DNA from: Candidatus Heimdallarchaeota archaeon
GTDB taxonomy: Archaea; Asgardarchaeota; Heimdallarchaeia; Heimdallarchaeales; Heimdallarchaeaceae
Assembly: GCA_021399395.1 (NCBI GenBank)
Contig: JAAFKJ010000115.1
Location: 2,364 to 66,363, forward strand
Direction: 5' to 3'
DNA: 64,000 bases
Part shown: positions 3,177-28,451 of the stretch, one piece after another
Layout of the letters: every line of letters begins with the position of its first letter
Numbering within the stretch: position 1 is the first letter of the stretch
Notes under the pieces: model-generated
What the model was told of the DNA's origin: nothing
Seen by the model: the letters and a program-made list of their open reading frames with translations, nothing else
Databases searched by the model: none
Made by a program: the position numbers and the translations under genes

Positions 3177-4973
3177 ATGGGTTATGCTGGAATTACTTTT
3201 CTATTATTTGTAGCCTATGTACCCCTTATTTGGATAATTTTTCGAATAAAACAAAGAAACAAAGTTTTGGGATACCTCTCTTCGGGTGTATTTGCTCTGT
3301 TGCTGTTGGGTGTATGGGTTGTTGGATTTCTTAATCGTACAATGATGGTAGGTGCTATTGAACATTTGATATTAGTAGGATCTATAAACACAATCCTAGT
3401 TCTGATATTCGAACTGACGATAAACAAAATTAATATCATAATGAGGTTAAAACGAAGAAAGAAATCATTTGTTTCTATCGCGGTTTTAATATTGGTCATC
3501 ATAATCGCTGGACACTCACTATTAGGTATAAGAAAAACAATGTTAAGTGCAAGACACTTCGAATCTATGGTAACATATGATTCTACAGATTTGCCCTTTA
3601 TTGTGCTAAATGAGGAAGCTGAGATCGATAATAACATAAGACTTGTTACAAAGGAATTTGCGATTAGTAAAGCAGAACAAAACAAAGCAACTTTTGGTTC
3701 TAATGCAGACTTAATGGAAGCCAATGTAATTTATGTAAATGAATCAATTTATTGGTGTATGATTTATGCCCCAAAGTCTTCTGCGCAGTTCTGGACACCA
3801 GGACAATTCAATCTAGCTTGGGGTCTAATTCTTGTAGAGGTTAACAATCCAAATGCTGAACCGATAATTGTTAACTTTGCTGAGGGGGATTTCAACTATG
3901 CTGAAGGTCTTTGGCGCAATCACAATGTTATTCTGAAAAACTATCGGCGTGATCAAGGAGCAAAATATTGGCGCTCCTATCCGACATGGACAGGAACAGA
4001 ATGGGTATATGTTATGACCCGAACAACACGAGATGTTTATGGTGCGTGGAAATCAGACGGTATTGATGTTCTTGATATCAAAACTGGTGGTTTAATAATA
4101 CATTATTCTGTAGACGAATTAGAAACAACCCCCGATTACATTCTACAAATCTATTCTGAAGTTTTGATTGAAGAAAAATGGATTATTAACTGGGGAAATA
4201 AGAGAGATACAACTGCTGAAGGTAATATACGATTACTCAGCGGATTCCCTAATTACAGTTCAGATCGGTTAGGCTTCTATGGTGAAGGTATAGAGGATAT
4301 CAGATATGTTAAATTTATGAATTCAACTTTAGCGTTCTTCGCTACTCATCCAAAAGATTCTGAAGAAACACTCGGTGGTATTGGCGTCATAAGGAAAAAT
4401 GGTACAAGATTCTATGATTTGAGAAGTAGAGGTTTTATTTCTGCCCTTACCGTATCTAAACTAGCAAGAGGGCAACTTACTGCTCCCAATACTGGTAGTT
4501 ACATTGTCCAAATGCCGGTGCCTTATACACTTAATACATCTATAGGTTTTAGACTTGCATGGTTTGTACCAATATATTGGCAAAGCGGTTCTGTACAACG
4601 ATTATCTCATGTTTGTGTTATCGATGCATTAGATTCAAGTTATATTTCTATAGCTGAAGCAGAAGGCTTGACTGGTTCTCAAGTAGTCAAAGAAGCACGA
4701 TTACAGTTCAAATCATTCTTCGCCTCAGAGATACCTCAGCAAGAATTTGAGATTGCTCAGATTGATGATGCAGGAACTTATGTAGATGGTGGAAATAGCA
4801 TATTCGTGTTTCAACTCAATGATTCGCGAATAATTCGTTGTTCCCAAAATTATCTCAATGAGACACATTGGAATGAAGTAGTTTTGGCTAATATTGGGAA
4901 TGTAATTCAATATACTTATACAGAAGATGATGAAGGTATATTGTGGGCAACTGAATTCTTTGTGATATCCTAA
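3177..4973 (+). CDS. Membrane protein: ~4 N-terminal TM helices plus a large extracytoplasmic domain, function unknown
   Basis: 598-aa ORF with hydrophobic segments in the first ~120 aa. The long soluble region is W/Y-rich and carries several N-x-S/T sequons. Confidence 0.6.
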   Translation: MGYAGITFLLFVAYVPLIWIIFRIKQRNKVLGYLSSGVFALLLLGVWVVGFLNRTMMVGAIEHLILVGSINTILVLIFELTINKINIIMRLKRRKKSFVSIAVLILVIIIAGHSLLGIRKTMLSARHFESMVTYDSTDLPFIVLNEEAEIDNNIRLVTKEFAISKAEQNKATFGSNADLMEANVIYVNESIYWCMIYAPKSSAQFWTPGQFNLAWGLILVEVNNPNAEPIIVNFAEGDFNYAEGLWRNHNVILKNYRRDQGAKYWRSYPTWTGTEWVYVMTRTTRDVYGAWKSDGIDVLDIKTGGLIIHYSVDELETTPDYILQIYSEVLIEEKWIINWGNKRDTTAEGNIRLLSGFPNYSSDRLGFYGEGIEDIRYVKFMNSTLAFFATHPKDSEETLGGIGVIRKNGTRFYDLRSRGFISALTVSKLARGQLTAPNTGSYIVQMPVPYTLNTSIGFRLAWFVPIYWQSGSVQRLSHVCVIDALDSSYISIAEAEGLTGSQVVKEARLQFKSFFASEIPQQEFEIAQIDDAGTYVDGGNSIFVFQLNDSRIIRCSQNYLNETHWNEVVLANIGNVIQYTYTEDDEGILWATEFFVIS

Positions 4974-6105: not shown

Positions 6106-6807
6106 ATGACCATTCCTACAGCTACTCCCTCTGAATTACCTATAAACTGTATTGCGGATGAAAATTCAAATTGTGCAGAATGTGATCTTGAAGGAGAGTT
6201 AATTTGCTTTGTAAATAAGAATTTTGCAAATAAATTTACTATAGGAAACATTATTTATCGCATATTAGCAATAACGATTTTCATATTTTCAGGTCTTTTG
6301 ATTGGTCATTGGTGGATGTTGATATCATATTCTATTGTACTTTTAATAACTTTCACGATTCTAGAACCTCGCTTATTATGCAGCCATTGTCCATTTTATG
6401 AAAAGAAGGGAAAGTGTTTGAAGTGCTGGGCTCTTAGAGGTATGCCAAAAATGTGGAAGTATAGACCTGAACCAATGAGTAAATCTGAAAAAATACTCAT
6501 GCTGATATTTGGGAGTTTCATAGACTTATTCCCAATTGTAGGTGCAGCTTGGGGTATGACAGTTTTTGGGTTAAATTATACCAATCCTGACCTATTATTT
6601 GCTGGAGTGGCAATTGTAATTTGTACTTTTCTTTTTATGATAGTAGCAGGATACTTTTCACGAGTTTTACTTGGTAATGCTTGTAAACGATGTGCTAATT
6701 TTTCTTGTTCTATGAATAAAGTACCAAAAGAATTGGTCGATAAATTCCTTGAAAAAAATCCAAAAATGAAAGAATCTTGGCTTGCTTATGGTTGGCAAAC
6801 AGACTAA
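6106..6807 (+). CDS. Cys-rich integral membrane protein, unknown function
   Basis: About 4 TM helices are interleaved with cysteine clusters (C-x8-C-x2-C-x8-C; CSHCPFYEKKGKCLKC; CKRCANFSC). Confidence 0.5.
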   Translation: MTIPTATPSELPINCIADENSNCAECDLEGELICFVNKNFANKFTIGNIIYRILAITIFIFSGLLIGHWWMLISYSIVLLITFTILEPRLLCSHCPFYEKKGKCLKCWALRGMPKMWKYRPEPMSKSEKILMLIFGSFIDLFPIVGAAWGMTVFGLNYTNPDLLFAGVAIVICTFLFMIVAGYFSRVLLGNACKRCANFSCSMNKVPKELVDKFLEKNPKMKESWLAYGWQTD

Positions 6808-7874: not shown

Positions 7875-7961
7875 TAGGGGATTTTCCTCTCTATTTATTT
7901 ATTCAGTTTCAAATATGTCCCCAAAGTGTTTTTAAGTTGTTCTTTTTCTTTTTTTCTTAGT

Positions 7962-8774
7962 ATGACAAAATCATTAGATGAAGTTCTGAATTCTTTAGGG
8001 GATATTTGTGATAAAGCAGTAAAAAACTCTGAAAACTACGGTATTGAATTTGGAACTTTTTCTCCCCACAAATTGAAGGCAACCAATGTGAAATGCATCG
8101 TTACATCACCATTAATGAACCTGAAACTTGTACATTTTATGAAAGAGAATAATGCTACTCTAGCTATTACCCTTCTTCCTCTTTCAATAACACAAACAAA
8201 ATTCCCTCTCATAGAAAGAGACTTTGAACTGCTCAAAGCTCTGGTAACAAATAACATCAAAACCATCTTATTACCAGATGAATGGATTTACTCACTACAA
8301 GGTAGCTTTGCTTATTTCTTACAAACTTTAGGACTTACTAATGCAGATACAGACGAGGTTACAGGGATTGGTGGTTCATCTATAATCAATTGGGAAATTC
8401 AATCAATAAGTTTCAATGATTTTCTTGCTAATCTAGGGCACTTGAATAAGAAATGGATGGCTTATCCCTTTGCATCGGAAGATTCTAACTTATCGTTCAT
8501 TTTAGAAAGAGATGATTTGTCCTTAAAAGAACTAGAGCTCTTACGAAACGAGGGTGTTAATACCATTGTGAGTTTTAAAATCGATTCTAAAAAGCTTCAA
8601 ATGTATCAAAGCAATAAACTGAATTTCATCTACATTCCTTATGTTGATTATTGTAATATTGCTTTACGTAAATTCTCACAAGTTTTACAGCTTGAAGTAG
8701 GAGAGCAAGTTCTGTTCAAGCCTTTTGAAACAAAAGATGGTATAAATTATACTGATTATCAAAACAAAAACTAA
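7962..8774 (+). CDS. NIF3/DUF34-like protein with degenerate metal-binding motifs
   Basis: Colinear with NIF3 (YbgI-type) architecture. The positions of the conserved HH, H-x-x-x-D and HH-x-x-E ligands read 'TLLPL', 'LLPDEW' and 'IPYVDYC'. Confidence 0.4.
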   Translation: MTKSLDEVLNSLGDICDKAVKNSENYGIEFGTFSPHKLKATNVKCIVTSPLMNLKLVHFMKENNATLAITLLPLSITQTKFPLIERDFELLKALVTNNIKTILLPDEWIYSLQGSFAYFLQTLGLTNADTDEVTGIGGSSIINWEIQSISFNDFLANLGHLNKKWMAYPFASEDSNLSFILERDDLSLKELELLRNEGVNTIVSFKIDSKKLQMYQSNKLNFIYIPYVDYCNIALRKFSQVLQLEVGEQVLFKPFETKDGINYTDYQNKN

Positions 8775-10262: not shown

Positions 10263-10892
10263 CTAATCATACATTTTATCAAGCAAATCATCGATTTTCT
10301 TCACTAGTTCACTTTTGAGTTTGTGTCTAGGTGGTTTATCCACATTCCTTAGATTTTTTATGTTGGATTCAAAGAGTATTTTTGATGCTAGAGTTTTTAC
10401 GATGTCTTCAACATCATACGTTTTTGGCTTAAACTCCTCTTCTGTCTTCTTTACTTCTACAACTTTCTGTTCAAACTCTCTGGTTTCCTTAATATCCAAA
10501 GGTTTTTGTTCTATTGTTCTTGAAGCTGGTAGAGTTTTTTCACCATATACATATGCTTGGGCAGGTAAATAATCTCTTGAAGAGATTGGCATCTCTTGAT
10601 ATGCTTCGGATTCCATTTTTCTTAGGATCTCAGGAAGAATTCTGTCCCTTTCCTCATGTTCAATGTTTACTACATTATATTTTGAACCTTTCATTGTTTT
10701 AAGATTAGTAGCTGCTCTACCTGCTGAATAGGATAAAACGTTTGAAATTCCATCTTTTCTGTAGATGAATATCTTTTTCTCAATTCTATCCATTATCAAA
10801 TAAGCTCCATTACCATCAAGAAAACTTTCTTTTTTTGCAGGTACTTCTTTATAACTACCATCTCTTCTTATTGAAAAAACTCGTAAACCCAT
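10263..10892 (-). CDS. Gelsolin-like domain protein with a charged C-terminal extension
   Basis: The N-terminal ~95 aa follow the gelsolin-repeat pattern (F-x-x-G-x-x-Y-[LI]; 'KIFIYRKDG...SAGRAATNL'; a terminal acidic strand 'VNIEHEERD'). The C-terminal ~100 aa are unassigned. Confidence 0.45.
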   Translation of the reverse strand: MGLRVFSIRRDGSYKEVPAKKESFLDGNGAYLIMDRIEKKIFIYRKDGISNVLSYSAGRAATNLKTMKGSKYNVVNIEHEERDRILPEILRKMESEAYQEMPISSRDYLPAQAYVYGEKTLPASRTIEQKPLDIKETREFEQKVVEVKKTEEEFKPKTYDVEDIVKTLASKILFESNIKNLRNVDKPPRHKLKSELVKKIDDLLDKMYD

Positions 10893-10942: not shown

Positions 10943-11662
10943 TCAAACTTGGTATCTTGTAGTATCCTCTTTTTCAATGATTTGGAAGGCTCTTTTTCTT
11001 CTTTGGCAAGATTCGCATATGCCACAATGAATTGGATGACCTTCTTTAGTCCAGTCTTTAACTTGATAGCAAGATGAAGAAAATTCTATCAAAGCATCTT
11101 TTTCTTTGAGGAATTCTACAATTTCACTTTTTTGTTTTTCATGAAATGGAGCTATTACCTCAATATCGTTCATACATCCTAATTCTATTGAATCATTCAT
11201 ACGTTCAACAAATTCTGTAGTGTTATCTGAAAAAGTACTTGCCTCTTCCTCATTAGCACCAAAAAGTATGCCAACTGTAGTGTCTAGACTGTCTGCATAG
11301 GAAGCTGCTATAGAAATAAATAGGATATTTCTTCCAGGAACCCAAACTGATTTTGCAGTTTGTTTAGTTAATTCCTCAGAATCAAGTTGTTCAAAATTAT
11401 TTATTTCAGGCACTTCATTTCCTGATTGTGATAGAGTAGACCCCGAATTTTTTGTAAATTCATCTAAAAACGGAAGTTCAATTATTTTGCTTTCCAAATT
11501 TAGTAAAGATGAAAATTTACTATTTATTTTAGAGATTGTATAATCTTCTTTACTTCCATACAGAAAACTAAGTAAAATTGTCCGATCATATTTTTCTAGA
11601 GCCCAATAAAGACATGCTGTTGAGTCTAACCCTCCTGAGAATAAAACTATTGCAATACTCAT
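10943..11662 (-). CDS. queC: 7-cyano-7-deazaguanine synthase
   Basis: PP-loop 'FSGGLDST' and a C-terminal Zn cluster 'C...CGICESCQRRKRAF'. Confidence 0.9.
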   Translation of the reverse strand: MSIAIVLFSGGLDSTACLYWALEKYDRTILLSFLYGSKEDYTISKINSKFSSLLNLESKIIELPFLDEFTKNSGSTLSQSGNEVPEINNFEQLDSEELTKQTAKSVWVPGRNILFISIAASYADSLDTTVGILFGANEEEASTFSDNTTEFVERMNDSIELGCMNDIEVIAPFHEKQKSEIVEFLKEKDALIEFSSSCYQVKDWTKEGHPIHCGICESCQRRKRAFQIIEKEDTTRYQV

Positions 11663-11720
11663 TTGAATCCTTCTTTGAAGTGTAATCTCGCGTATTATAT
11701 GTGTATTATTGTTTTTTTCC

Positions 11721-12173
11721 TTATTCAGTGTAGGAAACTATACTGGTGGGTGTTTCTGACATCGTAACAGTAATATTGAATTGGGGATATTTCCCTTTTA
11801 GCTTGTCATGTAGATATTTTGATAGTAATTCAACTGTTGTTGCTTCTAATGGAACCAGTACAACATCTTCTTTGGGAAAACGATAGAATTTCCCATCACA
11901 AGTTGAAACCTTGTATTGTTTTTGATCTAACTCAATGTTAAGATCTGAGTTATTTTCTGGTAATAAAACCATATGATCCAACTCTTTTATGATTGAGCTA
12001 ACACTCGTTTTGAATGGTCCAAAGTCAATGACCATGTTGTTCTCATCAAGATCCCCCTCAATTTCTACCTCGATTTCATAGTTATGCCCATGAAGACGAG
12101 CACATTTATCATGTTTGATTAACATATGAGCTGAAGCCAAAGTAAGCTTGTCACCTGAAATTTTTAACTTCAT
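11721..12173 (-). CDS. queD: 6-carboxy-5,6,7,8-tetrahydropterin synthase
   Basis: PTPS-fold motif 'CARLHGHNYEIEVEIEG'. Size ~150 aa. Confidence 0.9.
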   Translation of the reverse strand: MKLKISGDKLTLASAHMLIKHDKCARLHGHNYEIEVEIEGDLDENNMVIDFGPFKTSVSSIIKELDHMVLLPENNSDLNIELDQKQYKVSTCDGKFYRFPKEDVVLVPLEATTVELLSKYLHDKLKGKYPQFNITVTMSETPTSIVSYTE

Positions 12174-12181
12174 AATTATCC

Positions 12182-12814
12182 CTATATTGGTCTTGTTTTC
12201 GAAACATCTTCTTTTATTTTTGATATTTCATTTGAATATCTTTCAGCAATTTCCATTGCTATATTTTTTACATCCTTTTGTTCGATACCTAGTTCTAGAA
12301 GTCCTATCGCATTTACATGTGAAGGAAAACCTGTTCCAGCAATATTGATTCCCAAATGAATTTTGCTGCTAGAAACTCCTGTTGATGCAATAGCAACATT
12401 TAGTTTTCTATCCCCTACATACATGTCAGTTCCTTTCCTTATGAGTTCTATACCCTCATTTTTGAGAACCTCAATTACTATCTGAGCTAATACTTGTAAT
12501 CTATAATACTCCAATTCCATATTTGGAGGTTGAATGTCAAACTCCTCAATTATAAAATGTAATGAATCATCAGAACTTATCAGAATTTTGTTCAGATGTG
12601 ATTCCCTTACTATATCCTTTATATCAACCATTTCTTCAGGAGATAGTTTCATTCCTCCTCGAAATATAAGTATGGTTTCACCAAAAACACCATATTTCTC
12701 CGTTGTATATCTGTTGGCTAGCTGAGAACCATCATATGTAATGGGTTCTGAGAAATTCTCAACAATTATAGTATACTGATTTTTCTTAATTTTCTTCATT
12801 ATTTTCAAAACCAT
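12182..12814 (-). CDS. Conserved hypothetical protein embedded in the preQ0 cluster
   Basis: 210-aa ORF whose start overlaps the folE2 stop by 29 nt and which ends 9 nt before queD. I see no recognisable catalytic motif. It may belong to a small archaeal DUF, which I cannot verify. Confidence 0.5.
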   Translation of the reverse strand: MVLKIMKKIKKNQYTIIVENFSEPITYDGSQLANRYTTEKYGVFGETILIFRGGMKLSPEEMVDIKDIVRESHLNKILISSDDSLHFIIEEFDIQPPNMELEYYRLQVLAQIVIEVLKNEGIELIRKGTDMYVGDRKLNVAIASTGVSSSKIHLGINIAGTGFPSHVNAIGLLELGIEQKDVKNIAMEIAERYSNEISKIKEDVSKTRPI

Positions 12815-13754
12815 TTAATTGTTCTTTCAATCTCTGTAATGTGGTTTTTACTTCTGCTACAGCATTGTGTTGGTGAATACTTTCATAATTTGTCTGTTTA
12901 ACACAGATTTGTGTTTCTGGAGGTTGATTGCTATACTTAAGCGCTACTTGTTTAAGAATAGTACGAACTACGTCTTCAACAAAAACTGGATTATTGTGAG
13001 CATATAACACTACAGCTTGTTCATCTTTTCTCTTAAGTACTTCGTGTATTGGTGCACTCATAGAAGTTTCAAGAATTTTAATTACATCTTCTAATTCAAT
13101 TCTCTCTGCATTTCTTGGTTGTTCAAAAATAAGTATTGATTTTGATCTCTGATTGTGGGCTGCCAAAGGCATATCTTCTAGAGCAAGTTTTACTTGCTCT
13201 TCTGTAAACCCTTTCTCTAATAGCTTTTCTTGTGCAAAATCTCTCGACAATTCTTGAGAACATGGACATACTGTAGTTCCTTCAACTTCCGCACCAATAA
13301 TTTTCAAAACCTCTATTTTCTCCCCGTTTTTCTTAGCTCGAGCCCCAGCGATAAGCTTATGCACACTTGATTTTTCACCTTTAATTGCCTCAGAATACGT
13401 TTTCAACTCATAATTAGCTGTTAGGTTGACTTCAGAATTAGTAGCTCCCGGTTGAGCTAATAGAACCTTTTCTGCTATTTGAGAACACAACTCTTCACTA
13501 TCAGAAATAACTTCTCCTGTAAGGGTTGAGATGACCTCATTGATTGCTTCAATGTTCCGAGACATATGAATTCCTCTTTTTGAAGGGAGTAAGTCGACAT
13601 AAACGTCAATTTTCGCAGTCAACTCATTAATTTCACCAAACCGTTTTCGTTTTATGATTTTAGGAATGTCACAGATTCCTACTCTTCTGATTCCTATCTG
13701 AATTTTGGAATCATCCGACTGAACATCTGATAGTGGTTTGCTATTTAGTTTCAT
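12786..13754 (-). CDS. folE2: GTP cyclohydrolase, FolE2/MptA family (type IB)
   Basis: 'RGIHMSR' and 'CPCSQE' motifs typical of the FolE2/MptA fold. The context with queCDE favours the FolE2 role. Confidence 0.8.
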   Translation of the reverse strand: MKLNSKPLSDVQSDDSKIQIGIRRVGICDIPKIIKRKRFGEINELTAKIDVYVDLLPSKRGIHMSRNIEAINEVISTLTGEVISDSEELCSQIAEKVLLAQPGATNSEVNLTANYELKTYSEAIKGEKSSVHKLIAGARAKKNGEKIEVLKIIGAEVEGTTVCPCSQELSRDFAQEKLLEKGFTEEQVKLALEDMPLAAHNQRSKSILIFEQPRNAERIELEDVIKILETSMSAPIHEVLKRKDEQAVVLYAHNNPVFVEDVVRTILKQVALKYSNQPPETQICVKQTNYESIHQHNAVAEVKTTLQRLKEQLNGFENNEEN

Positions 13755-13764
13755 TTTTTATCAC

Positions 13765-14574
13765 CTATAGAATCTCAACAGCTTTGTGCATTTGAATTGA
13801 AATTCCAATTTTATCTGCAGGTAGATATTTGCCTGCTATTTGAGTGAAGTTATTTATTTGACTCCAAGTTGGTTTTTCAACTTTAGATCCTGCTGTTGGG
13901 GAGACAAATTGAATTACTATTGGGACACCAATTTCTCCACAGTTTCTTGCTATAATCTCAAAATCTTCATCTTTTGAGGATTTAGTTATTACAGTTTTTG
14001 CAAAGACTTTTGTTCCTGAATTTTTTAGTATCTTGCACATTAGAAGCTCCTGTTCTATTAACTTTTCCCAGTTCAATGCTGCTTCAGCTGTTCTGTCTTT
14101 AACATCTACACAAGCATAATCTAAGTTTTCTGCAATTTTTTCTAAATACTCAAAATTATCTGTAAAAGCTGTTTCTAAATAAATATTATATCCGTTTAAT
14201 TTGAGGAGCTCTATGGTTTTTTCTAGAAATGACTCCTGAAACAAAGGTTCCCCACCTGTGAAACTAATACTGTGTAAATCCTTTGATGTAAGATTCTTGA
14301 CCATATTTAGGATATCATTTGAAGTCACAGGATTTTCTATTTCTTTAAATATCTGGCTGCCTGGTTTGGTTTCCACAAGACATTTTTTTGGTGTAGAACC
14401 CCATGATTTTGGTGAATCACACCAAATACAACCTTTTGTTCCATGAACACCTAAAGCCAAAGGACAACCTGAAAACCTAATGAAAATTTGTCTTAATCCA
14501 TAACAACTTCCTTCAATAGCTGCACCTTCACCTTGGAAACTAGAGAATACTTCTTGAATATATCCTTGAGACAT
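13765..14574 (-). CDS. queE: 7-carboxy-7-deazaguanine synthase (radical SAM)
   Basis: N-terminal 'SFQGEGAAIEG' and a cluster motif 'C-x11-C-x2-C' (GCPLALGVHGTKGCIWCDS). Confidence 0.85.
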   Translation of the reverse strand: MSQGYIQEVFSSFQGEGAAIEGSCYGLRQIFIRFSGCPLALGVHGTKGCIWCDSPKSWGSTPKKCLVETKPGSQIFKEIENPVTSNDILNMVKNLTSKDLHSISFTGGEPLFQESFLEKTIELLKLNGYNIYLETAFTDNFEYLEKIAENLDYACVDVKDRTAEAALNWEKLIEQELLMCKILKNSGTKVFAKTVITKSSKDEDFEIIARNCGEIGVPIVIQFVSPTAGSKVEKPTWSQINNFTQIAGKYLPADKIGISIQMHKAVEIL

Positions 14575-14642: not shown

Positions 14643-15110
14643 CTAAAGACTATACCTTCCTATCTGTTCAAAAGTAGCAAACTTGTCTACATATTCTTTG
14701 ACTTTATGGGAATATTCCTTTGGATCCCTTTTCATTAGATTTGCAGCTGTAGAATTTAAGGGATCATCAGGATTTGGGTTACTTAAAATAAATCGAATTG
14801 ATTCGATAACATCAACTAGATTGTTCGCTGGTGTCCAATCTGCTCCAAGCACCCCTACACATATACGGGTATCAAATACATTTGCATGGAATACTTTGGT
14901 CAGCATTTTTACCTTCGGGGGTTTGAATGGATATTCTCTTGGTATTTCTACCTCCAGCACGAAGACACCCCCCTCATATAATCCTGCTCCAAAGATGAAT
15001 CCTCGCCAGTAAAGAGTATTGCCATCAACAGGTTTGAAAGTTGGCAACTCTTTCTTTAATTCATTTGCTTCTATTGCAATTCGAGGCCAGAACTCTTCTT
15101 CAGATAACAT
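14643..15110 (-). CDS. Ubiquitin-conjugating enzyme (UBC/E2) fold protein
   Basis: 'YPFKPPKVKMLTKVFHANV...RICVGVLGADWTPANNL...SNPNPDDPLN' matches the UBC core, including the catalytic Cys and W-[ST]-P-A. Confidence 0.8.
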   Translation of the reverse strand: MLSEEEFWPRIAIEANELKKELPTFKPVDGNTLYWRGFIFGAGLYEGGVFVLEVEIPREYPFKPPKVKMLTKVFHANVFDTRICVGVLGADWTPANNLVDVIESIRFILSNPNPDDPLNSTAANLMKRDPKEYSHKVKEYVDKFATFEQIGRYSL

Positions 15111-15145: not shown

Positions 15146-15310
15146 CTAATATACTCCGGAACCCTTATTTTGCATTTCAAGTAGTATCATAAGTATTGCA
15201 GCAATCAATCCTTTTTGATCTCCTGCTATTCTCTTAAACTCTTCTCTTTCAAGCATCATTGCTACAGAACGCCATCTAACAAGTAATTCTACTATATCTC
15301 TTTCACTCAT
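15146..15310 (-). CDS. Possible 54-aa helical micro-protein upstream of the E2 gene
   Basis: An ATG-to-TAG ORF found by hand (MSERDIVELLVRWRSVAMMLEREEFKRIAGDQKGLIAAILMILLEMQNKGSGVY). It is on the same strand as the E2 and ends 35 nt before its ATG. It is below the ORF-track size cut-off. Confidence 0.3.
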   Translation of the reverse strand: MSERDIVELLVRWRSVAMMLEREEFKRIAGDQKGLIAAILMILLEMQNKGSGVY

Positions 15311-15461
15311 TAGCCTTCAGATATGCAAAGTTTGCTAGCTTTATTAAGATTATGTAACTCCTAATGGCATCGAATTTTTTTGACAATAGAATGGCAATTT
15401 CTCAATCCGCCTAATCCACAAATTTTTAAAATTTAAAGTTATTCTGTTATTGTGAATATTA

Positions 15462-16127
15462 ATGAGTAACCCAGAAGAAATGTTAGTACAATTAATCAAT
15501 TCTATTAACAAACTATCTACATTAGTTCAAAACGTTAATGATTCAATTGGCCAATTATCTACGCAGATTGCTCAATTAGAAACTAAGATGGCTGGTTTTT
15601 CCAATGTTGAAACTCAAGTATCTGAGGTTGGACTTAAACTTGGAGAAATTCCAGGAATAAAAAATATGATTTCTAATTTAGATGCAAAAATCGATGGTTT
15701 AGGTGCTACTGTCAGTACAGATGTAGCTCAAGCTCCCGTTGCTGAATCTAAACCAGCAAAGAAAGCGAAGAAAGAGGAATACGTATCACCTGGTATTACT
15801 GAAGAAGAACCTTCTGTTGGAGGCGCTTCTGAGGCTGATGCTGCATTTACAGCTGTTTCAGCAAAATTCAAGCACATAACACAGATGGTAAATCCGAATT
15901 CAAGTTGTGGAAATGTCTCACAAATGCTAGAAGATCTTAGAGATGAGGTGGAAACTCAAGTTGGAATGTCTCCAATGCTGTATGAATTAAATTCTTGGGT
16001 TCAACGGATTTCTAAAATGCCACAAGGTGATGTTCTTCTTCCTGAAGTTCATAGTGAACTTATAGAAAAGCTAGATGATTGGCTCAATAGAGTAACAAAA
16101 GCTATCCATTTGAAATATCAAGAGTGA
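15462..16127 (+). CDS. Coiled-coil protein with a Vps28-C-terminal-domain-like tail
   Basis: N-terminal heptad-rich helix, then an A/E/K/P-rich linker. The C-terminal ~90 aa ('...LNSWVQRISKMPQGDVLLPEVHSELIEKLDDWLNRVTKAI') align by eye with the human VPS28 C-terminal domain. Confidence 0.4.
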   Translation: MSNPEEMLVQLINSINKLSTLVQNVNDSIGQLSTQIAQLETKMAGFSNVETQVSEVGLKLGEIPGIKNMISNLDAKIDGLGATVSTDVAQAPVAESKPAKKAKKEEYVSPGITEEEPSVGGASEADAAFTAVSAKFKHITQMVNPNSSCGNVSQMLEDLRDEVETQVGMSPMLYELNSWVQRISKMPQGDVLLPEVHSELIEKLDDWLNRVTKAIHLKYQE

Positions 16128-16131
16128 TAAC

Positions 16132-16154
16132 TTTTGTTCTTTTTTTTCTTTTTT
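16132..16154 (+). terminator. T-rich tract, candidate terminator
   Basis: cttttgttcttttttttcttttt immediately after the stop codon at 16127. Confidence 0.35.
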
Positions 16155-16222: not shown

Positions 16223-16858
16223 ATGATGAACCTAAGTGATATTAAAGGCATTATTGAAATAAATGGTGAATCTTATGACCCTAAATCTGTTCTCAAAGCA
16301 TTACTTGATCAAGGATTAAAGATTCATCCTCTAAATGGTTCTTTGTTAATTGGTAGAACATTTATTGATGCTGCACCAAATTTGCAATATGGTTCAACAA
16401 CCTGTCCCATTTCAGATCATTGTAAGATATACGATAAATTATATCCACAAAAATTGGACGAAACAAATCCTTCAGAATATAGTTCAAACCAAAGTTCACC
16501 ATCTGTTAATGCCACTTCGGATTCTTCTCAAACATCATCAGACCGATTTTATACTGATCCTATTCGAATTGATATTGATGATATAGATATTACAAATCTG
16601 TTCTCTGACTCAACTATAGGTGCACAATCTGTTGATGATATTGAAGAAGATATTTTCTTGAATCCGGATTTTGGAAGAGAATTAGATTCTGATCCAACAG
16701 AAATGGTTGGTTTGTCTCCTGTAACCCGTTATGGAAGAACTTCACATATTCAAGAATCAACTGTTCCATCGGAATATAGAGGGAGATGTCCTTTCTGCAA
16801 TTCTATAGTTAACATAAAATGGAAATATTGTGGAAGTTGTGGAACTTCCATGAGTTAA
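16223..16858 (+). CDS. Protein with a small N-terminal domain, an S/D-rich disordered linker and a C-terminal zinc ribbon
   Basis: The C-terminus 'RCPFCNSIVNIKWKYCGSCGTSMS' has C-x2-C-x10-C-x2-C spacing. Confidence 0.5.
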   Translation: MMNLSDIKGIIEINGESYDPKSVLKALLDQGLKIHPLNGSLLIGRTFIDAAPNLQYGSTTCPISDHCKIYDKLYPQKLDETNPSEYSSNQSSPSVNATSDSSQTSSDRFYTDPIRIDIDDIDITNLFSDSTIGAQSVDDIEEDIFLNPDFGRELDSDPTEMVGLSPVTRYGRTSHIQESTVPSEYRGRCPFCNSIVNIKWKYCGSCGTSMS

Positions 16859-16864
16859 CTTCTT

Positions 16865-18175
16865 TTATACTTCTGCATCAACACAGCCTTCAGGTGTGAT
16901 TGCAAAAACTGCTTCTGTTTCTGGCAAGTAAGGTGAATCATAAATTCTAATGATTCGTTTTTCTCCTTTAGATTTTCTTAAATAGAAACGTGTTATGGCC
17001 CAGTGTCCTAAGATGTTTCCACCAATAGCTTGTGTTGGATCCCCAAAAAATGCTGCGGGATTTGATTGTACTTGATTTGTAATTGCGATTGCTACACCAT
17101 AAGTATCAGCCAATCTACCTAATATTCCTAGATGGTAGTTAATTGTCTGTTGTCTTTCAGCTAGCGTACCTCTTCCTGCATATTCAGCTCTGAAGTGTGC
17201 TGTTGCTGAGTCAAGTGCAACAAAACCGTATTCGTCTTTGTGATTGTAAAACAATTCTAGTAGTCTTTCTACTAAGGTCATCTGATGGTCTGAGTTATAT
17301 GCTCTTGCATATGTAATATCTCTAAGAACATCTTCAAAGTTCTTTTCCCAACCTAGGTCTTTCTGTAGTTTTTCGTGGATAGCTTTTATTCTGCTTGGAG
17401 AGAATGTACCTTCTGTATCAACAAACACTGCTTTTTTACCAACTCCACCAAGTTCTGGAGGAAGCTGAACAGTTACACACAATTGATGACAAAGTTGAGA
17501 TTTTCCTGAACGAAACGGACCAAAAAATTCTATAGTTTCACCAAGTCTAACACCTGCAACACCTAGTTCATCAATAGTGGTTAAGGCATCCAAAGCTTTT
17601 ATTCCATATGTAAAAGCTGGTGAACCCATTTGCTTTTCCATAATATCAAATGCATTGACAAAATCTATTCCACCCCTTAGCTCACTAAGAGATTCCTTGT
17701 ATTTCTTAGCAGCGCTGGATGTTATACCATATTTTTCTTCTAATTCTCTAATAGGAGTTGTTTCAAGTAAATATACATTTAATCCCTTATCTCTAAGCAT
17801 ATCAGCTGTTGCTTTGCCAACACCAGGAAGATCTTCAAGTCCCATTTCTTCTTTGAAGAACTTATACTTGGCAATTGAACTTGAGATTTCAGCTCGAACT
17901 TTCTTTATTATTGCTCTTTGAAGACCCATTGCTTGGAGTTCAATAAGTCGGGTTGTCATAAGTTCCTCAATTTCATTAATATCATTTTCATTCAAAATAT
18001 CCAGAGTTTTCGTTCCTAAACCAGGTACATCAGTTAATTTCTTGAATTCTACTTTCTTTGATTTTTTAGCAGTTTCCTTCTCAGCAAGCTCTATTAGGTG
18101 TTCTTCATATTCTTCTTCAATTTCCTTTGCATCAGGTTCAGTAATTTCTTCCTGTATCTCTGTCTTTTTGCTCAT
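16865..18175 (-). CDS. radA: RadA recombinase with an extended N-terminus
   Basis: Walker A 'GPFRSGKSQ', Walker B 'FVALDSATAHFR' and a RecA-core C-terminus. Two HhH-like 'PG[LV]G' modules precede the core. Confidence 0.9.
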   Translation of the reverse strand: MSKKTEIQEEITEPDAKEIEEEYEEHLIELAEKETAKKSKKVEFKKLTDVPGLGTKTLDILNENDINEIEELMTTRLIELQAMGLQRAIIKKVRAEISSSIAKYKFFKEEMGLEDLPGVGKATADMLRDKGLNVYLLETTPIRELEEKYGITSSAAKKYKESLSELRGGIDFVNAFDIMEKQMGSPAFTYGIKALDALTTIDELGVAGVRLGETIEFFGPFRSGKSQLCHQLCVTVQLPPELGGVGKKAVFVDTEGTFSPSRIKAIHEKLQKDLGWEKNFEDVLRDITYARAYNSDHQMTLVERLLELFYNHKDEYGFVALDSATAHFRAEYAGRGTLAERQQTINYHLGILGRLADTYGVAIAITNQVQSNPAAFFGDPTQAIGGNILGHWAITRFYLRKSKGEKRIIRIYDSPYLPETEAVFAITPEGCVDAEV

Positions 18176-19422: not shown

Positions 19423-19980
19423 TTATCTTCCCATAGATTTTCGTCTATTATTTTGATCTTGTATTGCATTTTCAATTAGTGTTTTTACAAGATTTGCAAT
19501 ACCGTCACCTGTTAACGCAGATGTTTCTACATATCTGCAACCCAATCTTCTTGCAATTCTTTCTGCATCACTATGTTGAACTTCTCTTGCGACATCTGTT
19601 TTGTTCCCAACAATGGTTATATCTAAATCGATATTTTCTTGGCGTAATTCCCTAATCCAGTCTGCGCATTTTTTAAAAGAGTCCCTATTTGAAACATCAT
19701 AGATTATAGCAGCTGCATTAGTTCCAGGATAAAGAAGTTTTCTTACAACACCAAATCTTTTTTGACCTGCCATGTCATAGAAAAGTGCAACAGCTTTTCC
19801 TTTTTGTGTTTTGAAAGAGTAAGTATGAAATTCCGCCCCGACAGTTGGTTTGTATTTCTTTAGAAATACATTCTCGCTGATTCTTTTACAAATCGTTGTC
19901 TTGCCTGATCTACCCGGTCCACATATGGCAAGTTTATAGATATCATAGTCGCGGAACTTAACTTCTACATTTGAGCCCAT
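19423..19980 (-). CDS. Rab/Ras-like small GTPase
   Basis: G1 'GPGRSGKT', switch I 'PTVGAEF', G3 'YDMAGQKRF', G4 'GNKTDV' and G5 'ETSALTG'. The start is set at the internal ATG (MGSNVEV...). The 34-codon upstream extension looks non-coding. Confidence 0.85.
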   Translation of the reverse strand: MGSNVEVKFRDYDIYKLAICGPGRSGKTTICKRISENVFLKKYKPTVGAEFHTYSFKTQKGKAVALFYDMAGQKRFGVVRKLLYPGTNAAAIIYDVSNRDSFKKCADWIRELRQENIDLDITIVGNKTDVAREVQHSDAERIARRLGCRYVETSALTGDGIANLVKTLIENAIQDQNNRRKSMGR

Positions 19981-20125
19981 CTTTGGGAGCACCATGTAAA
20001 AACCCAGAAAAATAATTAAAAGGCGATGTAATACCTCACAGTTACGAGAACCCATATGTGTTGAATTTTGAAACTCATACACACTGGTTAATTCTTAAAT
20101 ATTACCAAGATGTAATTTGATTAGT

Positions 20126-21010: not shown

Positions 21011-21697
21011 CTATCTTCTTCTAAAATATAAAAAGAGTGCTGCAACTGCTGCAATTGCAGCTGGTACGACAGCGAATATTACCCATGCCCAGGCTATGGG
21101 AATTGCATTTCCGATGTTCCATTGAGGTAGATGTGGGTCTATTATTTCTCCAGGATTAACAAAACTTAGTAAAAACCTATGTTGACTTCTCACATCTTCT
21201 TGAAAATCGGTCCAATTATCATAAAACGACATGTAAACATATGGCACTTGCGCATCAGCTATGGTATCAGACGTGACATTATAATTAAATATCATTTTCT
21301 CGTTTGGTTTAATTTCCGATATATTATACTCTAGATAACTATCAGACATAAATAAACCAGTTATGTTTACTGCTGCAAATTCATTCATAACAGGTGAAGT
21401 CATTGTCTCATTAATTGTAATATTATCCCCACTTAAGACACTTAACGAGCATGCAGTTAGTCTAAGCTGAGTTATTTCAGTAAGGTTTAATGAAACGGTA
21501 ATGTTTGTTATTGTATAATTTAAGTAATTTTTGATGAAGATTCCTACAGTTATGTTCTCTCCAATAATTACTTCTCTTTCAAATACTATTTGATCAAAAA
21601 CCAATTCTTCTTCTGGAATAAAACCTACAGTTGAGTAAGTGAAACCTAGCATGGATATTAGCAAAGTTATGAAGAGTATTTGACTAAGTTTTCTCAT
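21011..21697 (-). CDS. Secreted, C-terminally anchored surface protein, sequon-dense
   Basis: N-terminal signal-like helix and a C-terminal TM helix followed by 'RRR'. Ten N-x-[ST] sequons lie within ~130 aa. Confidence 0.6.
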   Translation of the reverse strand: MRKLSQILFITLLISMLGFTYSTVGFIPEEELVFDQIVFEREVIIGENITVGIFIKNYLNYTITNITVSLNLTEITQLRLTACSLSVLSGDNITINETMTSPVMNEFAAVNITGLFMSDSYLEYNISEIKPNEKMIFNYNVTSDTIADAQVPYVYMSFYDNWTDFQEDVRSQHRFLLSFVNPGEIIDPHLPQWNIGNAIPIAWAWVIFAVVPAAIAAVAALFLYFRRR

Positions 21698-21778
21698 TAT
21701 AGTATCTCCTTCAGACCTTAAAAAGTGATAATGTTTTTAACTTTAACTCTTTGTGAGCCATTTAAGAACCTAGATTTT

Positions 21779-22492
21779 TTAAATTAAATCTAAAGTACTC
21801 TGATACGCTCTTACAATATCGATATTTTCCACTACAGAAGATTTAGCAACAATTTCAGGCAAATGCTGGTTAACCCAATTCATTGCATTTTCCATTTCCT
21901 TACGCATTATCGGGTCTGTGCTCCTAAATATGTCCACAAGATTATCAAAGTCAACAACTTGCTTGTTTTCTAATAATTCTAGCCATGCTTTTAATGTTTC
22001 AATTCGTTGAGATGGTAAGATAAATTCAACAGTTTTAGTGATTTTATTTGCTACAACTACTCCTTTGATTTTTACTGGCATTAATGCTCGGAATTGGCCA
22101 CCAAGCTGAGACCTAAAGAACATTGAGAGTATCTTTGTTTTATCTGAAATCCTTAATCTATTGTAGAGTAGATCATAATTTATTAATGTTGTACCAAAAA
22201 AAATCCTGGTATCACCATGTTCAATATTAAGAGCTGACTTAGATTCGAGTTCTGAATACAGATCATTTGTTTTGAATCTTATTCCTATAATTCTAGGCAA
22301 ATCTTCAGAAAGCTTAGCTAGAACTCTATCAACATCTCCTTCTATTACAAGATCGTCCCCAGAATGGGAAAAACGTGGATCAAAGATTCTTTTTATTGTG
22401 ATTGCTTCTTCTTCAAGAGAAGAATAGAGATCGTTTAAATTTTCAATATTCAAAGATTTCTGTGAAATTCTAATCATTTTGGTTTCAGGCAT
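21779..22492 (-). CDS. Hypothetical protein co-oriented with and immediately downstream of polB
   Basis: 237-aa ORF starting 16 nt after the polB stop. No motif recognised. Confidence 0.5.
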   Translation of the reverse strand: MPETKMIRISQKSLNIENLNDLYSSLEEEAITIKRIFDPRFSHSGDDLVIEGDVDRVLAKLSEDLPRIIGIRFKTNDLYSELESKSALNIEHGDTRIFFGTTLINYDLLYNRLRISDKTKILSMFFRSQLGGQFRALMPVKIKGVVVANKITKTVEFILPSQRIETLKAWLELLENKQVVDFDNLVDIFRSTDPIMRKEMENAMNWVNQHLPEIVAKSSVVENIDIVRAYQSTLDLI

Positions 22493-26052: not shown

Positions 26053-27066
26053 GTGGTTATTGTGTCAGATATACTACAAGCTATCCTTGAAAGTGGATCA
26101 ATTCTAGTAATTGATCCAACAGTTATTCAAACCAATCCGGATGATTTTTTAGATCATTATGGACATATTTTAGATGTGATTGCACTCGTTGCAAAAGGTA
26201 AGTCTGGATTTACTTTCTATCAAAGCAATAGTGCACCAAGAGATAAGACAAATGGGGTGTTCTTCCATTCATTTTGTACCATAGCTGATAATATGGGAAT
26301 CAAAGTAGATGCAATCGTGAATTCATACAGTGATACTTTTCTATCACAAAATGCAGACTTTCAAGTGGTAAGCAGTGATGGTGCAACCATAGCGTCGTTT
26401 GCATGTCCAAGTCAAGAGAACTTCAGCAGATATTTGGCATCCATCGCTTCTGAAGTAGCACATTATCCAATAGATGGCTTAATTCTTGATGATTTAATGC
26501 TTCCAAATAAAAGATCATGTTTCTGTGATCGATGCCGAAGATTATTTGCTAGTAAATGGAATATCGAACGTGATTTCAGTTTTGAATATCTGGAATCTAA
26601 AGACCTATTGACAAATTGGAATGATGAAAGGTCTACCTACGTAAATCAAGCCTTGAAGGAAGTTACTGATACCGTAAAAGGATTGAAGAACATAGATATT
26701 TCCATCATTATGAAAACTGATAGAGAGACAGATTCTTTAATTGGTTCTCATGAGCATTTCGGTCAGAATATTGTTGAACTTGCCAAAACCACCCGTAATT
26801 TGATATTGCATGTAAATCCTTGGAGTGAAATCTCCTCTACAAAAGATGACCCTGCATATCAACAATTATTGACATCATTATCAATACTAAAAGAATATTC
26901 AGGAACTGGAATCAAACCTTCACTCTACTTCTGGGACATTACAACATCTGAAAAACTCGAAACTGCAATAAAATTAAAAGATGATTTGAAAGCAGAGAAG
27001 TTATACATAGATTCAACTCTTCCACATGATTTCACAAAAAGACGAACTACTAACCTAGGGTTTTAG
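26053..27066 (+). CDS. Hypothetical protein, possibly a TIM-barrel glycoside-hydrolase-like (GHL) fold
   Basis: 'IDGLILDDLMLPNKRSCFCDRCRRLF' resembles the D-x-x-R-x-P...C-[FY]-C-x-x-C motif of GHL-type barrels. GTG start. The assignment is weak. Confidence 0.4.
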   Translation: MVIVSDILQAILESGSILVIDPTVIQTNPDDFLDHYGHILDVIALVAKGKSGFTFYQSNSAPRDKTNGVFFHSFCTIADNMGIKVDAIVNSYSDTFLSQNADFQVVSSDGATIASFACPSQENFSRYLASIASEVAHYPIDGLILDDLMLPNKRSCFCDRCRRLFASKWNIERDFSFEYLESKDLLTNWNDERSTYVNQALKEVTDTVKGLKNIDISIIMKTDRETDSLIGSHEHFGQNIVELAKTTRNLILHVNPWSEISSTKDDPAYQQLLTSLSILKEYSGTGIKPSLYFWDITTSEKLETAIKLKDDLKAEKLYIDSTLPHDFTKRRTTNLGF

Positions 27067-27068
27067 AA

Positions 27069-28451
27069 ATGACTCTTGAAAAAGCAATTGAAGAAATTAA
27101 GAAGATGTTTTGGGGAGTATTAAAAGGGCAATTTAATCCTGAAGAGGAAGAAGACGTTAAAACTCATCTTATAACGAATTTAGCCACTTTAACTTCATAT
27201 GCAAAAACATGCTTGCCACCTGATCAGAAGAAAGAGTATGAAAAACACTTTACTAAAGCTAAAGACGTTCTTCTGAAATTTGACAGTGCAGGTCCTTGGT
27301 TTAGAGAACTTCCAGAGATGATTGATACCGTTTATAATGTTATCACCTATGCAAACATGTTGCAGATAGAATATCATCGTTTTAATGGCACAGATAACGA
27401 CAGTCTACAATACATTAATACAAAATTGGAAACTTTGGAAATGCAAGTCAATTCCCTCATTGAAGACTTAAAGAGCATTAAGAAGAAAATTTCTCCCTCC
27501 TTTCAAACCAATCGGCCAGTAACTATAGACGAAACTAAAGGGGAGTTAGTTGATTTTGAGGAAGAAACTCAACTTGAAACTGAAGATGAAGTTCAAGTTT
27601 TTGCTGAACCCATTGATACAACACCAATTGAAATAAAAGAAGTTGAAGAAGCCGAAGAAGATGATACAAAAATAGTTAAGGAGACTGAAATTGAAACTCC
27701 TGAGGTAGAATTAGTGGGAGTTCTAGATGAAGAAATAAGCGGTGATACACAAGATTTGATTGAAGGGATAGAAATCGCTTCTCAGTATGAATTTGAACAA
27801 GAACCATTTGTGCAAAATATAGAATCTGAGCAAGAGGCTTTAAAACAACTAGCAAATCTACTATCTGCTTTAGATCCAGGAGATGATTCTGTAATATCTC
27901 CCCTTACTGAAAAATTGATGACCATTGGAGAAGAAGATGAAATAGAAATCATAGAAGAAATCCCATCAATTGAGTCTGGAGTTGTGGCTGAGGAAGATTT
28001 AAGCAAAGAAGAAATAGCAGAAGTCCACGAATTTAGATCATCAGTATCGCGGTTGAGTCACGTTTTATCATCACCATCAGAAATTAAGGATGCGGCAGAA
28101 TTTGTTTCATCGATAAAGAAAACTATAGCAGATGTTTCTAAGGATAAGGATCTTGAAGCTGGTAAGAAATCAAAACTAACTCAAATCATAGAATCTGAAG
28201 TGGGTGAAGTAGAAAAACCTCCAGTTCAAACAGAAGATATTGAGAATGTAATTAAGCACCTTGAAACCAGAAGACAAAAGGCAGTAGAACGGATACAGCA
28301 ATTAGAAGAAGCTCTTAATTCAGAGAAAATTGATGAGGAAGAATGGCAAGAACTTCGAATAAAGGCTGAAAGACATATGTTAAGGGTTGAAGATACTCTA
28401 GATGGTTATAAGAGATATTTGACCAAATTACATACTAAACCCACCGAATAA
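27069..28451 (+). CDS. Highly acidic protein with a helical N-domain and a C-terminal coiled coil
   Basis: 460-aa ORF starting 2 nt after the previous stop. It has a long E/D/I/V-rich middle region and terminal heptad repeats. Confidence 0.5.
   Translation: MTLEKAIEEIKKMFWGVLKGQFNPEEEEDVKTHLITNLATLTSYAKTCLPPDQKKEYEKHFTKAKDVLLKFDSAGPWFRELPEMIDTVYNVITYANMLQIEYHRFNGTDNDSLQYINTKLETLEMQVNSLIEDLKSIKKKISPSFQTNRPVTIDETKGELVDFEEETQLETEDEVQVFAEPIDTTPIEIKEVEEAEEDDTKIVKETEIETPEVELVGVLDEEISGDTQDLIEGIEIASQYEFEQEPFVQNIESEQEALKQLANLLSALDPGDDSVISPLTEKLMTIGEEDEIEIIEEIPSIESGVVAEEDLSKEEIAEVHEFRSSVSRLSHVLSSPSEIKDAAEFVSSIKKTIADVSKDKDLEAGKKSKLTQIIESEVGEVEKPPVQTEDIENVIKHLETRRQKAVERIQQLEEALNSEKIDEEEWQELRIKAERHMLRVEDTLDGYKRYLTKLHTKPTE

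Follow-up and report, generated by a model that had tools for sequence, protein, structure and literature searches.

A gene in a 64,000-nucleotide stretch of DNA from a Candidatus Heimdallarchaeota archaeon (contig JAAFKJ010000115.1; the whole stretch is referred to below as the window) encodes a 221-residue protein, the target of this analysis, that is best read as a module resembling the C-terminal domain (CTD) of Vps28 set on a different scaffold. Vps28 is a membrane-sorting protein, a subunit of the endosomal sorting complex ESCRT-I. The explanation we favor, with moderate confidence, is that the target is a Heimdallarchaeota-restricted adaptor consisting of a coiled coil, a flexible, YxSP-bearing linker, and a docking bundle derived from the Vps28 CTD, and that it probably acts together with its neighbors in a ubiquitin-linked process. 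We infer that the bundle is a distant homolog of the Vps28 CTD rather than a product of convergence.

Predicted structure of the C-terminal bundle

AlphaFold2 (AF2) was run on the family alignment, using the full protein, and on the tail alone. In the full-length model the four C-terminal helices have predicted local distance difference test (pLDDT) values above 90; the CTD-only model likewise has four helices, with a pLDDT of 90.4 and a predicted template modeling (TM) score (pTM) of 0.80. The helices span residues 121-142, 149-167, 171-184, and 194-220. When 350,542 PDB chains were searched with Foldseek, the top three matches of both models were 2J9W_A, 2J9W_B, and 2G3K_A, the CTDs of Xenopus (2J9W) and yeast (2G3K) Vps28. 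Their probabilities were 1.00, 1.00, and 0.99, with TM 0.67-0.72 and a root-mean-square deviation (rmsd) of 2.8-3.6 Å, and the match ranked fourth for the CTD-only model had a probability of 0.38, TM 0.48, and rmsd 4.9 Å. The tail thus has the Vps28-CTD fold, as judged from the predicted structure. A preliminary description of the sequence had likened the tail to this domain and had proposed structure prediction as a check; the result bears it out, and because the four-helix prediction is confident, the objection that the tail might not be a four-helix bundle falls away.

As in eukaryotic Vps28 (Xenopus 2J9W; yeast 2G3K and 2J9U), the bundle is about 100 residues long and lies at the extreme C-terminus. 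The register of helices α3 and α4 is also shared with the eukaryotic CTD, the target having equivalents of W183, M190, D194, L196, and N213. Unlike eukaryotic Vps28, the target has an α2-α3 loop that is 6 residues shorter, and a coiled coil where Vps28 has the ESCRT-I core domain.

Profile comparison with Asgard Vps28

The CTD of the target family was compared by hhalign with canonical Asgard Vps28 proteins, whose sequences came from Supplementary Data 1 of PMC9192718, and with 12 canonical Heimdall CTDs from metagenomes. Matched to the CTDs of Lokiarch_10170, HeimAB125_14070, and OdinLCB4_14280, the family CTD gave a probability of 92.7% (E=4.1e-7) in an alignment of 72 columns running from α2 to the C-terminus; the value was 78.5% (E=1.7e-5) with the three Asgard plus eukaryotic CTDs. 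As a positive control, Asgard CTDs aligned to eukaryotic CTDs gave 98.6% (E=1.2e-15). The CTD of the Odin protein alone matched over 82 columns that include all four helices (88.6%, E=2.7e-6), and the 12 Heimdall CTDs merged with those of Odin and Loki gave 92.3% (E=5.7e-7).

BLASTP likewise aligned target residues 132-209 with residues 138-218 of Odin Vps28 (E=7e-4), again covering all four helices. The target resembles OdinLCB4_14280 and HeimAB125_14070 not only in this CTD profile match but also in a tryptophan spacing: its W179-x27-W207-L-N209 follows the W-x27-W-[LR]-N pattern common to the Heimdall and Odin CTDs. One and the same α3-α4 register scored +32 with human, +33 with Odin, and +37 with Heimdall Vps28.

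Comparison with human VPS28

The preliminary description had rested its case on an ungapped 40-residue alignment to the end of human VPS28. The human sequence used there proved essentially correct when checked against 6VME, 2J9W, and mammalian VPS28: PDB 6VME chain E is identical to it over residues 1-122, residues 122-221 match the Xenopus Vps28-CTD 2J9W nearly residue for residue, and the full length agrees with mammalian VPS28 proteins at 98-99%. The alignment contains exactly the eight identities listed for it (W, Q, S, M, D, L, L, and N), and its BLOSUM62 score is +32, as against -35 ± 13 for 100,000 shuffles in fixed register. BLASTP recovered the same register, aligning target residues 158-216 with human residues 156-220 at 28% identity with one 6-residue gap (E=0.005 for the single pair). 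By itself this pairwise match is not significant; we regard it as suggestive, a lead and not a proof.

Homology or convergence

The leading alternative is convergence: the tail would be a four-helix bundle particular to this lineage and unrelated to Vps28, and the target a Heimdall-specific coiled-coil protein without any tie to ESCRT in evolution or function. Four-helix bundles arise readily in this way, and up-down helical bundles of about 100 residues have few possible shapes to choose from. A considerable body of results weighs against homology with Vps28, beginning with the searches that did not find it. The Pfam VPS28 model (PF03997) gave no match for the target at E≤10, leaving its gathering score unreached, and of 18 family tails just one reached E=0.055; the hmmscan check proposed beforehand therefore came out negative. 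A family-tail profile run against all PDB sequences did not retrieve Vps28, and hhalign comparisons of the family CTD with 46 diverse eukaryotic Vps28 sequences gave 4.4%, 1.7%, and 19.4%, none of them significant. The Foldseek E-values for the Vps28 CTD matches are weak (0.03-0.25), as is to be expected for a helical domain of just 100 residues.

The Asgard comparison has weaknesses of its own. When its members were taken singly, the HeimAB125_14070 CTD gave 10.7% (E=0.0029) and the Lokiarch_10170 CTD 0.2% (E=0.37), and the 12 canonical Heimdall CTDs gave 29.7% (E=5.6e-4) over α3-α4 only. These leave-one-out results show that the Asgard signal depends mainly on the Odin sequence. At single positions, most of the near-invariant residues are replaced. 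The near-invariant residues of eukaryotic CTDs are, in human numbering, T138, D141, W183, A192, R202, Q203, D207, F215, and L219. In the BLASTP and hhalign alignments, W179 of the target preserves W183, and only the hydrophobic residues V211 and I215 stand in for F215 and L219; R202, Q203, and D207 are replaced by S198, E199, and K203, and the T138/D141 motif is not kept in the target.

A tail related to that of the target was found in a Lokiarchaeial protein of about 456 residues from Promethearchaeota isolate 33X4 (L036, 2861-4231, + strand). Over its last ~80 residues BLASTP gave a gap-free alignment with residues 139-213 of the target (24% identity, E=2e-6), and hhalign of the two tails gave 51.7% (E=1.5e-4). 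The protein belongs to an orphan family of 463 clusters (P0351 and 462 others) with a mean column identity of 71%, for which no Pfam or PDB match was found, the ~370-residue N-terminal region included. Although this family has the domain, its tail alone gave no Vps28 signal in hhalign (0.2-0.6%), and adding the Lokiarchaeial tails to the query lowered the Vps28 match to 42%, both of which speak for convergence. The missing Vps28 signal would also fit a further-diverged member of the same domain family. Downstream of this protein lies a 210-aa gene (L036, 4255-4887) with no significant Pfam match.

We nevertheless consider convergence the less likely explanation. The Foldseek ranking and the Asgard profile comparison are independent lines of evidence, and both converge on Vps28. 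The alignment register fits the helix boundaries and does not change between three very different Vps28 proteins. The controls also fell far below the observed result: 150 column shuffles of the query peaked at 22.9, short of the hhalign score of 41.9 in every case, the reversed query scored 13.8, and about 27 comparisons among unrelated helical segments, neighboring proteins, and ESCRT proteins gave a probability of at most 3.9%. The proposal of a Vps28-CTD-like tail therefore holds for the fold and for the Asgard CTD profile, and does not hold for Pfam, the eukaryotic profile, or the invariant residues.

If the bundle is a true CTD homolog, Vps28 CTDs would have evolved as an independent, portable module, and the target would represent a second, free-standing ESCRT-I docking module, carried on a coiled coil and encoded beside a bona fide ubiquitin-conjugating enzyme (E2). 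It would then offer a concrete candidate for a further connection of ubiquitylation with membrane remodeling.

Distribution and domain architecture of the family

A search of 5.8 billion proteins yielded 85 clusters for the target family, all from metagenome-assembled genomes (MAGs) of Heimdallarchaeota/Asgard archaea and all unnamed or generically named. These clusters had no Pfam domain except for one P10 match, and no NCBIfam model covers the family. When one genome of each prokaryotic species was scanned, the gene was present in 28 Heimdallarchaeota-type genomes, among them AB_125 and the complete genomes (CP084166 and CP084167) of Ca. Heimdallarchaeum aukensis and Ca. H. endolithica. The family is limited to the sampled Heimdallarchaeota lineages (AB_125, Ca. 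Heimdallarchaeum, and relatives). MCE7742445.1 in GenBank, named 'hypothetical protein GOP50_08280' and derived from a Candidatus Heimdallarchaeota archaeon MAG, matches the target at 100% identity; in AB_125 the syntenic ortholog of the target is HeimAB125_07760. A literature search returned no mention of HeimAB125_07760 and nothing that combines Asgard, Vps28, and Foldseek.

The positions of the protein's regions are given in Table 1. Across the family alignment the N-terminal ~45 residues hardly vary and the C-terminal ~95 residues are highly conserved; residues ~58-75 are absent from short variants, and the linker varies in both length and sequence. A heptad-rich N-terminal helix and a low-complexity linker between the two halves had been described beforehand, and the AF2 model agrees on both. 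The YxSP motif stands out within the linker by its conservation, and we consider it a candidate docking motif.

Coiled-coil matches were confined to the N-terminal half and were weak (NPV_P10, E=7.9e-5; reovirus sigma-1). The target scored 23.5 bits against the NPV_P10 family, below the cut-off of 29.8, and the remaining matches in Pfam, NCBIfam, and PDB-sequence searches were weak coiled-coil noise; assignment of this half to a P10-like or generic coiled-coil family was therefore rejected.

Relation to the canonical Vps28 of Heimdallarchaeota

Given the resemblance of its CTD and a length of 221 aa, the same as that of human VPS28, the target might be thought to be the organism's genuine but diverged Vps28 subunit of ESCRT-I. 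This reading is largely refuted, and we rate it as very improbable. The N-terminal core domain of Vps28 packs with Vps23 and Vps37 to form the ESCRT-I headpiece, and the N-terminal half of the target is unlike it: hhalign of residues 1-85 gave 0.1% against the eukaryotic Vps28 N-terminal domain and 0.3% against full-length Asgard Vps28. The preliminary description had pointed to the equal length, which is a coincidence, since full-length members of the family vary between 186 and 278 aa.

The two kinds of protein also coexist in one genome. Besides HeimAB125_07760, the close relative AB_125 encodes HeimAB125_14070 (PMC9192718), a separate protein with the canonical UEV-Vps23-Vps28 arrangement, whose CTD gave 96% against eukaryotic Vps28 in hhalign. 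Because the canonical Vps28 function resides there, the target family is an additional divergent CTD-bearing protein and not a Vps28 ortholog. The canonical Asgard proteins have the core domain, the steadiness-box region, a location in the ESCRT cluster, and a 96-99% match to eukaryotic Vps28; the target has none of these.

The genomic setting points the same way. When seven AB_125 ESCRT/ubiquitin proteins were compared with the window by tblastn, the only hit was to the E2, through the UEV part of the Vps23-Vps28 query (E=2e-4); no ESCRT-II, ESCRT-III, Vps4, or ubiquitin gene was detected in the window by this search. The target gene thus lies outside the ESCRT cluster, a location that convergence would also account for. 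Pfam scans of about 33 open reading frames (ORFs) between positions 10 and 33,153 found housekeeping genes.

Vps28 modules in other domain combinations have precedents among Asgard archaea, as in the Vps5-BAR-Vps28 fusions of Thorarchaeia (PMC10307638). Unlike those fusions, the target family is missed by the standard Vps28 profile and appears to keep the CTD alone. Fusions of Vps28 in Asgard archaea are therefore already known, and what is new is the arrangement of a coiled coil with a Vps28-CTD-like bundle. Surveys based on standard profiles report one Vps28-bearing protein for AB_125 (PMC9192718), and the target family escapes the profiles on which such published surveys rely.

The clustered neighbors

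The E2 gene lies on the other side of the divergent intergenic region from the target, separated from it by a gene for a 54-aa protein (Table 1). The E2 has the catalytic Cys (FHANV...ICVGVL), with HAN replacing HPN. It is the ortholog of HeimAB125_07740, its active-site stretch being identical to that in the supplement of PMC9192718, where that protein is classed as a bona fide E2. The gene is outside the ESCRT/ubiquitin cluster, and its product is 74-98% identical among related genomes.

The 54-aa protein, whose ORF adjoins the target in 35 of 35 related loci, shows 57-98% identity. By inspection it seems to consist of two helices, the second of them strongly hydrophobic. No Pfam or NCBIfam match was found for it, nor any similarity to a Heimdall ESCRT protein or to Vps28.

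Downstream of the target, the 211-aa zinc-ribbon protein is clustered with it in each of the 36 related loci examined and evolves fast (27-80% identity). An invariant C-x5-C pair marks its N-terminal domain, and the disordered middle contains the motifs R-x-Y-x-D..D-x-D-I and E-M-x-G-x-S-x-x-T-x-Y-G. Its profile matched only zinc ribbons in the PDB, with no informative Pfam or PDB match. Two assignments were considered for this protein and rejected: the N-terminal domain is not ubiquitin-like (hhalign 0.2%), and the ribbon is a generic CxxC-x10-CxxCG without the conserved residues of an NZF finger.

Gene order was compared across the 35 related loci. In 31 of them, including the window, AB_125, and most others, the E2 and small genes point leftward and are followed by the target and zinc-ribbon genes pointing rightward. 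Ca. Heimdallarchaeum aukensis and endolithica have the zinc-ribbon and E2 genes pointing leftward, then the small and target genes pointing rightward. In L004 and L005, which contain the most divergent member, the small, target, and zinc-ribbon genes all point rightward and no E2 is nearby. The small ORF is accordingly the leading gene of an operon, which it shares with the E2 in most genomes but with the target in Ca. Heimdallarchaeum and L004.

The cluster of four genes has persisted through at least two rearrangements, which hints at a functional link between the target and ubiquitin conjugation. Two observations count against this link: the whole region is syntenic, the neighboring RadA, CobA, Ras-like GTPase, and PolB genes being conserved as well, and in the divergent genome L004 the E2 is missing from the target locus. 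The region-wide synteny makes the neighborhood evidence moderate.

The adjacent E2 gene raises the thought that the tail might serve, together with that enzyme, as a ubiquitin-ligase scaffold element, cullin-repeat-like or otherwise, the more so as cullin-4A/4B were the best, though insignificant, PDB-sequence matches of the family CTD profile (whole-sequence E about 0.03-0.8) and have the string 'SPMLY' in common with the tail. We give this idea hardly any credence, since no single stretch was significant (per-stretch E 69-1900), neither model had a cullin in its 50 best Foldseek matches, and a 100-residue four-helix bundle differs from the five-helix cullin repeat. The cullin matches, the shared string included, were accordingly judged to be due to chance.

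Proposed role

Taken as an adaptor, the target might work as follows. Its coiled coil would mediate self-association or bind a helical partner, conferring multivalency or contact with a second partner. The bundle would dock onto a partner protein much as the Vps28 CTD does onto ESCRT-II or zinc-finger partners. The pathway served would be ubiquitin-linked, as the clustering with the E2, the ~50-aa protein, and the zinc-ribbon protein suggests. By analogy, Vps22/Vps25 or the adjoining zinc-ribbon protein are candidate partners for the bundle. OdinLCB4_14280, the canonical protein to which the tail is most similar by profile, has been shown to bind Vps23 (PMC9192718).

A bolder version of this proposal is that the four clustered genes together constitute a ubiquitin-linked sorting adaptor independent of ESCRT-I, in which the zinc-ribbon protein binds the bundle. 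We think this improbable. In yeast, the zinc finger of Vps36 binds the Vps28 CTD. Asgard archaea have no full-length Vps36 (PMC9192718), and for this reason they appear to lack a bridge between ESCRT-I and ESCRT-II. Were the four-gene adaptor real, it would be an archaeal counterpart or precursor of that bridge. Among known archaea, Heimdallarchaeia are the nearest relatives of eukaryotes, and the wiring of their ubiquitin-ESCRT pathway is an active question.

Gene features and coordinates

Table 1. Features of the target gene, its product, and the clustered neighbors (positions in the window)
Feature	Position	Strand	Remarks
E2 ubiquitin-conjugating enzyme	14643..15110	-	UQ_con E=4.5e-34; divergent from target
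54-aa helical protein, MSERDIVELLVRWRSVAMMLEREEFKRIAGDQKGLIAAILMILLEMQNKGSGVY	15146..15310	-	Conserved; upstream of E2; adjoins target
TATA-box-like A/T-rich element, tttttaaaattta	15423..15435	+	27-39 nt 5' of ATG; read from sequence
Target ORF	15462..16127	+	Complete; ATG start; 221 aa
N-terminal coiled-coil region, residues 1-82	15462..15707	+	AF2 helices 4-61 and 64-82
Disordered A/E/K/P/S-rich linker, residues 83-119	15708..15818	+	AF2 pLDDT<50; gap-rich in alignment
Y-x-S-P motif within linker	15780..15791	+	Y107, S109, P110 at least 90% conserved (family alignment)
C-terminal four-helix bundle, Vps28-CTD-like, residues 121-221	15822..16124	+	AF2, Foldseek, hhalign, BLASTP
T-rich tract	16132..16154	+	Directly after target stop codon; read from sequence
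211-aa zinc-ribbon protein	16223..16858	+	Downstream of target; N-terminal ~75-aa domain, disordered middle, C-terminal CxxC-x10-CxxC

The ORF reported in the preliminary description, with the tail quoted there, was re-read exactly as given. Its start codon is confirmed by the N-terminal sequence MSNPEEML, which is conserved across the family alignment. The strand opposite the ORF has many stop codons. The TATA-like element sits within the 151-bp divergent intergenic region and may be the promoter of the target gene, and the T-rich tract is possibly an archaeal oligo-T terminator. Together, the element upstream and the tract after the stop codon suggest that the target gene forms its own transcription unit.

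Other genes in the window

Five genes for 7-deazaguanine (archaeosine/queuosine precursor) synthesis adjoin the E2 gene (10943-14574, - strand) and are syntenic in most relatives. The run consists of QueC, a PTPS/QueD-like protein, DUF366, a FolE2-type GTP cyclohydrolase, and a radical-SAM QueE-like protein. On the other side of the cluster, next to the zinc-ribbon gene, is a RadA/Rad51 recombinase (16865-18175, - strand) of 436 aa, whose long N-terminal extension has helix-hairpin-helix motifs. A Ras/Arf-like small GTPase (19423-20082, - strand; Ras family E=2.5e-36), one of the 'eukaryotic signature' proteins typical of Asgard archaea, occupies the same position in related genomes.

Several ORFs of 209-598 aa had no Pfam match, at E≤1e-4 for 3177-4973, 6106-6807, 7926-8774, 21011-22492, and 26053-28451 and at E≤1e-3 for 10263-10892. 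Some of these Pfam-less ORFs recur in the related loci, as does the pair that lies downstream of the 3-hydroxyacyl-CoA dehydrogenase gene. Farther along, two adjacent genes (29699-33153, - strand) have the domain content of ATP-citrate lyase, one combining CoA-binding, CoA-ligase, and citrate-synthase domains and the other ATP-grasp and Citrate_synth_N.

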